From Escherichia phage NHEP3: a stretch of 44,039 nucleotides of DNA. A model generated the notes under the pieces. The model saw nothing but the letters and a program-made list of their open reading frames with translations. It had not been told where the DNA came from and made no database searches. The stretch lies in sequence record PQ511147.1, one strand, 5' to 3'. The position numbers were made by a program, and so were the translations under genes. Of this stretch, positions 7,914-9,447 are shown one piece after another (position 1 is the stretch's first letter; every line of letters starts with the position of its first letter).

Positions 7914-9000
7914 TCAATATATGGCGGATCGAATGATCCGCCGACACATCTTCACCCAGCGCCTGAGCAATGACCAGGCGCGAAGGGTGCTGGCTATGTG
8001 GGAGAAGTTCCGGCCCACGTTACTGGGTAAGCTGACCGAGTTACTTGATGGTAAAAAGTCCATGAACAACAAGGCACTTACCACTCTGTTAACGCAACTC
8101 GACAAGACCGTCAAAACGGAACTGCGCACCGAGTTTAAGGCGTTGGCTGAAAGCCTTCAGGAGTTCGCCGACACCGAGGCCGATTATCTCGCCGACACAT
8201 TAACGGCAGCGATCCAGCCGGTGGTCGCCGTACCGGCGATCGAGGTGGTTGGCGTAGTGACCGGTGCGAAGATCGCAGCGACGGCAATGAAAAACCCGTT
8301 CCTGGGTAATACGATGATGCAATGGCCTGACTCACTTTCTGAGTGGACCAGGACGCAGATCGGTAATCAGGTGCGGGCGGGATTCATCCAGGGCAAGCCA
8401 ACGATGGAAATTATCGCGGACGTGAGGCGCGCGCTAGGCGGTCGTAGTGCGCAAGCCATCTCAAGCGTTGTTAAGTCCGCAGTCAACCACTATGCGGCGA
8501 CCGCCCGCGAACTAATGGTAAAAGCAAATGACGATATTCTCGAAGGTCGCCAATGGTTATCTACATTGGACACGCATACTTCTCCCATGTGCCAGCTACG
8601 CGATCGCCTGTTTTATCCGGTTGATGTTACTCCCGATACGAAAGGGAAGCGAGGCGGAAAAGTGGTGGCGGGATCACAATATGGCGCTGGTCCGGGCAAG
8701 CTGCATTATTGCTGCCGTTCGACGGAGACGTGGAAAGTCAAAGGTATGGAAGATTGGCCCAGTGGTAAGCGTCCGGCACTGAAGGCTGACGCAGGCAGGT
8801 TGCTGAGTGAGCAGGTAGACGCGCAGACAGATTTCTTCTCATGGGTGCAGCGCCAGCCGCGCCACATCTTGGAGGAATTATATGGGGTGCAGCGCGCCGA
8901 CCAGATTATGCGCGGCGTGAAAGTGCCGAAGATGTTTACCGATTCTGGCGAACTGATGACTATTGCACAGCTTAAAAACCGGGGGTTATGGCGTGATTAA
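7897..9000 (+). CDS. head morphogenesis protein (minor head protein, SPP1 gp7 / Mu F-like)
   Basis: 367 aa overlapping the portal stop; called on position in the head module. Confidence 0.5.
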   Translation: MARTINQYMADRMIRRHIFTQRLSNDQARRVLAMWEKFRPTLLGKLTELLDGKKSMNNKALTTLLTQLDKTVKTELRTEFKALAESLQEFADTEADYLADTLTAAIQPVVAVPAIEVVGVVTGAKIAATAMKNPFLGNTMMQWPDSLSEWTRTQIGNQVRAGFIQGKPTMEIIADVRRALGGRSAQAISSVVKSAVNHYAATARELMVKANDDILEGRQWLSTLDTHTSPMCQLRDRLFYPVDVTPDTKGKRGGKVVAGSQYGAGPGKLHYCCRSTETWKVKGMEDWPSGKRPALKADAGRLLSEQVDAQTDFFSWVQRQPRHILEELYGVQRADQIMRGVKVPKMFTDSGELMTIAQLKNRGLWRD

Positions 9001-9322
9001 ATATGCAGCGATCGGACTGGTTATCGGTCTGGCGGTAGGATTCTGGCTAGGGGACTCCTATCGCGCTGGCGTAGTGGCAGAGGTTGAGAAACAGGCACGA
9101 GCAAAAGCCCAACGGCAGCAAACTAAAGTTGTTGAGCGCTCCGTGCAGGCAGAACAAGCCCGCGACGTAGAATACCGGACTATCACGAAAGAGGTTGTTA
9201 AATATGTTACGCGCCCTAACCGCCCTGATTGTAGTTTTGATGCTGAGCGCGTGCGGATCAAGCAACGTGCCGTTGATGCCGCTAACGGAGTCGGCGCTGC
9301 GACCGCCGTGCAAGTTCGATAA
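8993..9322 (+). CDS. i-spanin (Rz-like)
   Basis: N-terminal transmembrane helix IKYAAIGLVIGLAVGFWLG then a charged coiled-coil-like region; likely GTG start at 8993 (ORF opens at a TTG at 8963); overlaps the next lipoprotein gene in another frame. Confidence 0.55.
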   Translation: MIKYAAIGLVIGLAVGFWLGDSYRAGVVAEVEKQARAKAQRQQTKVVERSVQAEQARDVEYRTITKEVVKYVTRPNRPDCSFDAERVRIKQRAVDAANGVGAATAVQVR

Positions 9323-9434
9323 CCCGTCCGCGGACCCCGACGAAGATTTGATGATTGATGTTAAAAATATGGAGTGCGGTGCTAAGCTGAGGGCGCAGGT
9401 CCTGGAGTTGCAGCAAATAATTAAGGGGCCGTAA
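9204..9434 (+). CDS. o-spanin (Rz1-like outer membrane lipoprotein)
   Basis: Signal peptide with lipobox LSAC, Pro-rich mature part, embedded out of frame in the 3' end of the i-spanin gene; GAGG Shine-Dalgarno before the ATG at 9204. Confidence 0.6.
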   Translation: MLRALTALIVVLMLSACGSSNVPLMPLTESALRPPCKFDNPSADPDEDLMIDVKNMECGAKLRAQVLELQQIIKGP

Positions 9435-9447
9435 TGGCCCCTTTTTC
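9424..9447 (+). terminator. rho-independent terminator (possibly bidirectional)
   Basis: Stem AGGGGCC / GGCCCCT followed by a T5 run; lies between convergent genes. Confidence 0.65.

Follow-up and report, generated by a model that had tools for sequence, protein, structure and literature searches.

The spanins of the phages EK99P-1, EP23, HK578, JL1, SSL-2009a and SO-1 have been placed in a 27-member family named 'Jersey', in which the inner-membrane component (i-spanin) and the outer-membrane component (o-spanin) are both entered as 'Overlapped' (Kongari et al., 2018; PMC6139136). In the subfamily of shorter i-spanins that runs from EP23 to SO-1, the i-spanin was described as having a pair of helices, a connecting linker for which one beta element is predicted, and a variable C-terminal end, and the o-spanin was noted for its conserved Cys and Pro residues (PMC6139136). 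The corresponding locus was analysed here in Escherichia phage NHEP3 (PQ511147.1), the whole 44,039-nucleotide (nt) stretch of which is referred to as the window. Judged by its sequence, this locus is, with a probability of approximately 0.9, the two-component spanin of a Dhillonvirus (an HK578-like virulent siphophage of E. coli) and a member of the Jersey family; it shares with the spanins of HK578, JL1, EK99P-1, EP23, SO-1 and SSL-2009a the genus-level lineage, the overlapped layout, the helix-linker-helix i-spanin, the conserved Cys and the position in the genome. Homologous genes are annotated as 'Rz-like spanin' in the GenBank record of phiEco273, as i-spanin (bas15_0005) and o-spanin (bas15_0006) in that of the BASEL phage PaulFeyerabend (Bas15; MZ501097), with the same starts as those deduced for the window, and again as i-spanin and o-spanin in Sodalis phage SO-1 and other records. 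For the Dhillonvirus vB_EcoS_P78, a paper of 2025 names two holins and an endolysin and, seven locus tags further, an Rz-like spanin (PMC12677095). The pair, its architecture and its unlinked position are already known from the literature and GenBank, and the finding is an ordinary one of small discovery value.

A 1-kb query taken around the spanin locus matched 157 phage records; in 135 of these, the match spanned 80% or more of the query length. Most matches are 90–96% identical, and nearly all belong to Escherichia or Shigella phages classed as Dhillonvirus, with genomes of approximately 44–45 kb. Therefore, the window is essentially one whole genome of a Dhillonvirus (HK578-like) siphophage. 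The i-spanin matched phrog_2536 over its full length and, more weakly, phrog_8821 and phrog_1152, while the o-spanin matched phrog_5672 and phrog_1267, all five of which carry the label 'Rz-like spanin' (E values in Table 1). In a tblastn search, 666 phage records matched the i-spanin and 646 the o-spanin, the genera being the same for both (Dhillonvirus, Jerseyvirus, Kagunavirus and others); by these matches, the two genes are found together across several hundred phage genomes. Membership of the Jersey family is defined by homology, which was found for both proteins, the tblastn matches to Jerseyvirus and Kagunavirus pairs having E values of 8e-12 to 1e-10. The HK578-like phages listed under this family match the window, and the listed members EK99P-1, EP23 and SO-1 are 82–93% identical to the window spanins.

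The class of the spanin was judged by the features laid down by Summer et al. (2007) and Kongari et al. (2018). The product of the first gene has those of an i-spanin, namely a small size, a single N-terminal transmembrane domain (TMD) and a largely alpha-helical periplasmic domain, the helices being those of a low-confidence model. Its residues 1–20 (MIKYAAIGLVIGLAVGFWLG) form the sole hydrophobic segment, with a mean Kyte-Doolittle value of 1.9–2.0 over 19 residues; beyond residue 20, the protein is charged, rich in Ala, Val, Arg, Gln and Glu, and contains a single Cys (C80). The single-sequence AlphaFold2 (AF2) model, which is of low confidence, consists of a helix (residues 4–72), a linker that includes Cys80 (73–83), a second helix (84–97) and a disordered tail. 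The GTG at 8993 is the start in every annotated relative, including PP786691, OL615010 and MZ501097. A mechanical list of open reading frames (ORFs) opens both spanin frames at TTG codons, as 8963..9322 and 9195..9434. TTG 8963 was rejected as the start of the i-spanin, being no more than the first TTG in the open frame; it lacks a spaced Shine-Dalgarno element, and GTG 8993 is the start used in curated relatives.

The product of the second gene has the features of an o-spanin, i.e., a small size and a lipoprotein signal with a lipobox and without Asp at position +2. Its N-terminus, MLRALTALIVVLMLSAC followed by GSS, contains a positive N-region, a hydrophobic core and the lipobox L-S-A-C (Cys17), with Gly at +2. 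This is, by its sequence, a textbook lipoprotein signal, and since the +2 residue is Gly and not Asp, Lol sorting to the outer membrane is predicted under the established +2 rule. The mature part comprises 60 amino acids (aa), 7 of which are Pro, with Cys at precursor positions 36 and 58, and the low-confidence AF2 single-sequence model runs from a signal helix through an unstructured Pro-rich stretch to a C-terminal helix (53–73). No hydrophobic segment follows the signal peptide, and the protein is therefore not a unimolecular spanin of the T1 gp11 type, in which an N-terminal lipobox is combined with a C-terminal TMD; nor did a six-frame lipobox scan with hydropathy reveal any other ORF of the window that joins the two. 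The ATG at 9204 is the start annotated for the o-spanin in MZ501097 (bas15_0006). TTG 9195 was rejected, since it likewise has no spaced Shine-Dalgarno element before it and ATG 9204 is the start in curated relatives.

The initial annotation of this stretch had proposed a two-component spanin pair composed of an N-terminally membrane-anchored protein and an out-of-frame lipoprotein, and re-analysis bears this out in the PHROG matches, the Jersey-family placement of HK578-like phages, the hydrophobic residues 1–20 and the lipobox LSAC. The interval that it had assigned to the pair, 8963–9447, contains the ORFs on the + strand as claimed; its extent was slightly too wide and has been trimmed to 8993..9322 and 9204..9434, bases 9435–9447 being non-coding and part of a terminator-like hairpin. 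It had further described the lipoprotein gene as both embedded and overlapped, only the second of which holds. The o-spanin gene, read in the +1 frame, begins 211 nt after the i-spanin start, and because it extends 112 nt beyond the i-spanin stop, the architecture is overlapped and not embedded, overlap being one of the three arrangements expected of an o-spanin gene (embedded in, overlapping or immediately downstream of the i-spanin gene).

Conservation was assessed in 19 distinct sequences, i.e., the window and 18 related Dhillonvirus-type loci from GenBank and IMG/VR. The spanin unit is 442 nt long and free of indels in all 19. The o-spanin has 76 aa throughout. The i-spanin occurs in two allelic forms, one of 109 aa, found in 14 sequences including the window, and one of 102 aa, found in the other 5, in which an earlier i-spanin stop reduces the overlap to 98 nt. 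The TMD, the lipobox (L[ST]AC, followed by GSS) and the three periplasmic Cys that could form homotypic disulfides (C80 of the i-spanin, C36 and C58 of the o-spanin) are kept in every sequence. In the segment that encodes the i-spanin alone, variable sites number 25, 15 and 47 at codon positions 1, 2 and 3 of the Rz frame. The corresponding numbers for the segment that encodes the o-spanin alone are 12, 6 and 24 in the Rz1 frame and 24, 12 and 6 if it is read in the Rz frame; therefore, the periodicity of this segment belongs to the Rz1 frame, and its synonymous and non-synonymous codon differences stand at 161:38. The doubly coding segment has the smallest fraction of variable sites (0.33 vs 0.41 and 0.375 in the other two segments) and, as expected because both frames are constrained, shows no synonymous excess in either frame. 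Both spanin genes are, by these counts, under purifying selection, and the two-frame pattern is more than chance would give.

Among the Dhillonvirus loci compared, the i-spanin is 80–97% and the o-spanin 80–100% identical to that of the window, and nothing of substance differs. The gene order in PaulFeyerabend (MZ501097) is identical (terS, terL, portal, minor capsid/head-morphogenesis, i-spanin, o-spanin, convergent gene, scaffold, major capsid), the differences being a protein identity of approximately 81%, a 102-aa i-spanin and a 98-nt overlap. Homologous overlapped pairs of 35–48% identity are found in the Guernseyvirinae (Jerseyvirus Jersey and Shelanagig; Kagunavirus K1ind1) and in the related phage Schulenberg; these differ from the window in having a longer i-spanin (128 aa) and a Hoc-like decoration gene before the spanins, and in lacking the convergent Nmad5 gene. 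In two lambdoid contigs of IMG/VR, L022 and L023, the i-spanin is 37% and the o-spanin 32–36% identical to that of the window, and the overlapped layout and Cys-containing motifs (YRTIT.DVVKYV..PNR..C.FD) are the same. The window pair resembles Rz/Rz1 of lambda in predicted topology, reliance on periplasmic Cys, presumed mechanism and an o-spanin gene that opens within the i-spanin gene, in the +1 frame. Sequence homology to lambda is not detectable; in addition, Rz1 is fully embedded, and the lambda genes lie directly after the endolysin gene R.

The manner in which the pair would act is modelled on the lambda Rz/Rz1 paradigm, which reportedly goes back to work by Berry et al. in 2012 and Rajaure et al. 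in 2015. Late in infection, the i-spanin would accumulate in the inner membrane and the o-spanin in the outer membrane, and the C-terminal periplasmic regions of the two would mediate their binding to one another. Homodimers may be covalently stabilized by intermolecular disulfides, for which Cys80 of the i-spanin and Cys36 and Cys58 of the o-spanin are candidates. The spanin complexes would be held inactive, threaded through the peptidoglycan mesh, until the product or products of the holin genes (1690-2222) triggered lysis and the endolysin (2209-2700) removed the wall; thus freed to move and to change conformation, they would fuse the inner and outer membranes, and the last barrier to phage release would be gone. 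Because the spanins would be controlled after translation, by the state of the wall, their genes need not adjoin those of the holin and endolysin. The locus offers a clean illustration that spanin genes need no such linkage, which fits control by cell-wall state and not by co-expression.

Several observations weigh against the assignment of this locus as a Jersey-family spanin. Two-component spanins are further marked by being required for disruption of the outer membrane at lysis, mutants being arrested as spherical cells when Mg2+ is present; no experiment on this spanin family was found in the literature searched, and the function is assigned from sequence features together with homology and gene context. 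Searches of Pfam, NCBIfam and PDB sequences were empty for both proteins, the sub-threshold returns (DUF7904, GvpT, an LptM signal and ribosomal S5) being discarded as noise, and homology to lambda Rz and Rz1 themselves was not detectable. In Pfam-A, neither protein matched a spanin or lysis family at E <= 0.1, which places the pair outside the sequence families of the lambda spanins, which we take to be Phage_lysis and Rz1. Spanins form many unrelated families, and for this reason the lack of a sequence relation to the lambda proteins is expected. The AF2 single-sequence models are of low confidence, with predicted local distance difference test (pLDDT) values of 64 for the i-spanin and 56 for the o-spanin, and give rough secondary structure only; as models, they agree with the published helix-linker-helix description of the subfamily and are not independent proof of a coiled coil. 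Finally, neither a terminator scan (17 vs 13.6 +/- 4.4 in shuffles) nor a sigma-70 promoter scan (9 vs 8.3 +/- 3.0 in shuffles) of the sequence was enriched.

The endolysin stop at 2700 and the i-spanin start at 8993 are 6,292 nt apart, and the holin-like genes at 1690-2222 lie 6.8–7.3 kb upstream of the spanins. Between endolysin and spanins are six predicted genes (orf55, a nuclease/phosphatase, a 70-aa ORF, terS, terL and the portal) and the head-morphogenesis gene, directly after which the pair begins; the initial annotation, which had put the pair after the head-morphogenesis gene and approximately 6 kb from the lysis cassette, was correct on both counts. The spanins of the window thus do not adjoin the endolysin as in a classical contiguous cassette, and such adjacency is not a defining feature of spanins. 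Their position in the head module is identical in every Dhillonvirus locus examined, and in Jerseyvirus Shelanagig and Kagunavirus K1ind1 the homologous pair likewise stands between the head-morphogenesis (and Hoc-like) and scaffold genes, several kb from a holin-holin-endolysin cassette, which in K1ind1 lies approximately 7.7 kb upstream on the circular map. The separation of the spanins from the lysis cassette has been stated in print for phage Schulenberg (PMC6763661). In L022 and L023, the window arrangement is not found; two holin-like genes and an endolysin gene stand immediately before the homologous overlapped pair. As this spanin family is found in both head-module and classical-cassette contexts, the head-module position is, in the compared sequences, a lineage trait and not a peculiarity of this genome.

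The genes at 55 to 9434 are all co-directional, and the spanins are the last genes of the terminase-portal-head-morphogenesis block, on whose late transcript they may be carried. The hairpin that overlaps the o-spanin stop, AAGGGGCC-GTAAT-GGCCCCTT followed by a T-run, is likely to be the intrinsic terminator that ends the packaging/head/spanin block: the RNA fold of 9405-9470 has an energy of -26.1 kcal/mol (z = -3.6), and the hairpins at 2891-2912, 4336-4356, 9423-9443 and 12280-12299 stand exactly at the ends of gene blocks. Because the terminator and promoter scans did not exceed the shuffles, we infer the transcription unit, of which the spanin pair is probably the last cistron, from this arrangement. 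The GTG of the i-spanin gene at 8993 overlaps the stop of the head-morphogenesis gene (TAA 8998-9000) by 8 nt, as GTGATTAA; therefore, translational coupling of the i-spanin to the head-morphogenesis gene is possible. This 8-nt overlap is kept in all Dhillonvirus loci examined. A more far-reaching proposal is that the terminal-cistron position and the start/stop overlap, in Dhillonvirus and Guernseyvirinae, tie the dosage and timing of the spanins to head assembly and not to the expression of holin and endolysin, with orf55 serving as a new lysis accessory; nothing speaks specifically in support of it, and we regard it as very unlikely.

Location between the head-morphogenesis and scaffold genes could also be explained if the pair had no part in lysis and served instead to modify the envelope, to exclude superinfecting phages or to assist head assembly. 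Exclusion is an activity of small phage lipoproteins, Cor among them, a Cor homologue is encoded elsewhere in this genome, and the absence of any known experimental test of the spanin family, mentioned above, also favours such a role. This explanation is nevertheless very improbable, since the combination of a TMD protein with an out-of-frame lipoprotein is an architecture specific to spanins, the same family occupies a classical holin-endolysin-spanin cassette in L022 and L023, and the phage would, without the pair, be left with no recognisable function for disrupting the outer membrane. Furthermore, the spanin genes pseT.3/pseT.2 of T4 provide a precedent in that they are unlinked from holin and endolysin and still function (Kongari et al., 2018, Fig. 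8 legend; PMC6139136); the T4 o-spanin shares with that of the window a predicted C-terminal helix, and the T4 system differs in having separated genes of an unrelated sequence family.

The tandem holin-family genes at 1690..2222 (+) differ from each other (phrog_2359 and phrog_2508), may encode a holin and its antiholin or partner, and overlap their neighbours by 4 nt and 14 nt, and the order holin-holin-endolysin is also found in Kagunavirus K1ind1 and in L022 and L023. Directly upstream of them, the 108-aa protein encoded at 1311..1637 (+) has one strong N-terminal TMD and is 64% identical in the divergent relative L018; it could be a lysis regulator or have another membrane function. The slot usually taken by spanins is occupied by orf55 (MLKSILDHNADALAALAKTEDPG...PSPPPQEESDPVT), an acidic protein with a Pro-rich tail that is 83% identical in L018. 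In orf55 (2717..2884), no hydrophobic segment and no lipobox were found, and its sole match was phrog_11068, a family of unknown function; by its sequence, orf55 is not a recognisable spanin, which agrees with the initial annotation. A competing spanin locus was also looked for, and the six-frame lipobox scan of the window returned just the o-spanin ORF and one other, at 26072..26290 (-). The latter was rejected as an alternative o-spanin, as it is a homologue of the superinfection-exclusion protein Cor (phrog_1119, 6.5e-28) in the tail-fibre region.

Spanin-less phages with alternative outer-membrane disruptors exist. It might accordingly be supposed that the outer membrane is disrupted by another product encoded near the endolysin, such as orf55, which fills the usual spanin slot and is conserved (phrog_11068, 2.3e-38; L018), or the 108-aa TMD protein, and that the Rz/Rz1-like pair is redundant or vestigial. 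Very little credence can be given to this supposition, because orf55 has neither hydrophobic nor amphipathic cationic character, its tail being acidic and Pro-rich, and because the purifying selection on the spanin pair is clear, unlike that expected of a vestige.

In many public Dhillonvirus records, the o-spanin gene is left out or is called from the internal Met25, which gives a 52-aa product without signal peptide or lipobox, as in gp6 of Shigella phage StarDew (L002, 4944..5102). The phrog_5672 profile has only 47 positions, which align to o-spanin residues 32–76; therefore, this family model seems to have been built from truncated gene calls. The value of the present models, 8993..9322 and 9204..9434, lies in correcting such annotation. 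The notion that the 109-aa membrane protein alone is real and the lipoprotein ORF in the +1 frame is open by chance, to which the short profile and the several related records that hold only a 'hypothetical protein' or the 52-aa product might lend weight, can be dismissed as scarcely credible, given that the full 76-aa frame with its ATG, lipobox and both downstream Cys is intact in 19/19 loci, that the segment past the i-spanin stop has codon periodicity in the Rz1 frame only together with the synonymous excess given above, that homologues of 32–48% identity in Jerseyvirus and the lambdoid contigs retain this lipoprotein start (the Kagunavirus match covering residues 30–75 only), and that curated annotations (CPT, BASEL) give an o-spanin.

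Table 1. Features of the window at and around the spanin locus (positions in nt; hairpins are terminator-like; SD, Shine-Dalgarno)
Feature	Position	Strand	Remarks
108-aa TMD protein	1311..1637	+	phrog_2531, a family of unknown function
Holin-like gene 1, 96 aa	1690..1980	+	phrog_2359 holin, 2e-31; hydrophobic segments
Holin-like gene 2, 81 aa	1977..2222	+	phrog_2508 holin, 2.8e-27; hydrophobic segments
Soluble lysozyme-family endolysin	2209..2700	+	Pfam PF00959 Phage_lysozyme, 3.9e-21; phrog_7 endolysin, 5.2e-35; no N-terminal hydrophobic segment
55-aa ORF (orf55)	2717..2884	+	phrog_11068, 2.3e-38
Hairpin	2891-2912		directly after orf55
Calcineurin-like phosphatase / DNA-repair exonuclease homologue	~2974..4119	+	
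70-aa ORF	4116..4328	+	
Hairpin	4336-4356		before terS
terS, then terL	~4446..6382 (terL 4997..6382)	+	
Portal	6393..7913	+	
Head-morphogenesis protein	7897..9000	+	stop TAA 8998-9000
GGGGG, SD-like element	8981..8985	+	7 nt before i-spanin GTG; read directly from the sequence
Spanin pair	8993..9434	+	
i-spanin (Rz-like) gene	8993..9322	+	GTG start, 109 aa; phrog_2536 'Rz-like spanin', 6e-36
GAGG, SD-like element	9191..9194	+	9 nt before o-spanin ATG, within i-spanin coding sequence; read directly
o-spanin (Rz1-like) gene	9204..9434	+	ATG start, 76 aa, +1 frame relative to i-spanin; phrog_5672, 2.4e-26; phrog_1267, 9.5e-12
Doubly read stretch, 119 nt	9204..9322	+	C-terminal 39 codons of i-spanin; signal peptide and N-terminal part of o-spanin
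GC-rich hairpin, then T-run	9423..9443		overlaps o-spanin stop, between the convergent o-spanin and Nmad5 genes; scan match on both strands
Nmad5-domain gene	9449..10213	-	convergent with o-spanin; Pfam PF18757, 9.5e-55; phrog_1965
Scaffold, then major capsid protein	from ~10359 (capsid 11161..12261)		
Hairpin	12280-12299		after capsid gene

The Cor homologue is a 72-aa lipoprotein (MKTLIMICAVLLAGC...). Its gene, which is on the opposite strand, is flanked by one for a 'membrane associated protein' (25382..26053) and by a 605-aa tail-fibre gene (26344..28161), with the gpJ-like central fibre gene (21620..25039) farther upstream. Beside the spanins, the gene at 9449..10213 (-) contains the full-length PF18757 domain, 'nucleotide modification associated domain 5', and its other match, phrog_1965, is a family of unknown function; no counterpart of this gene is present at the spanin-adjoining site in the Guernseyvirinae loci examined. 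The spanin pair and the Nmad5 gene together form an island of divergence, in which the nucleotide identity to PaulFeyerabend is 82% within 8900-10100 vs 93% outside, and that to L018 is 70% inside vs 82% outside.

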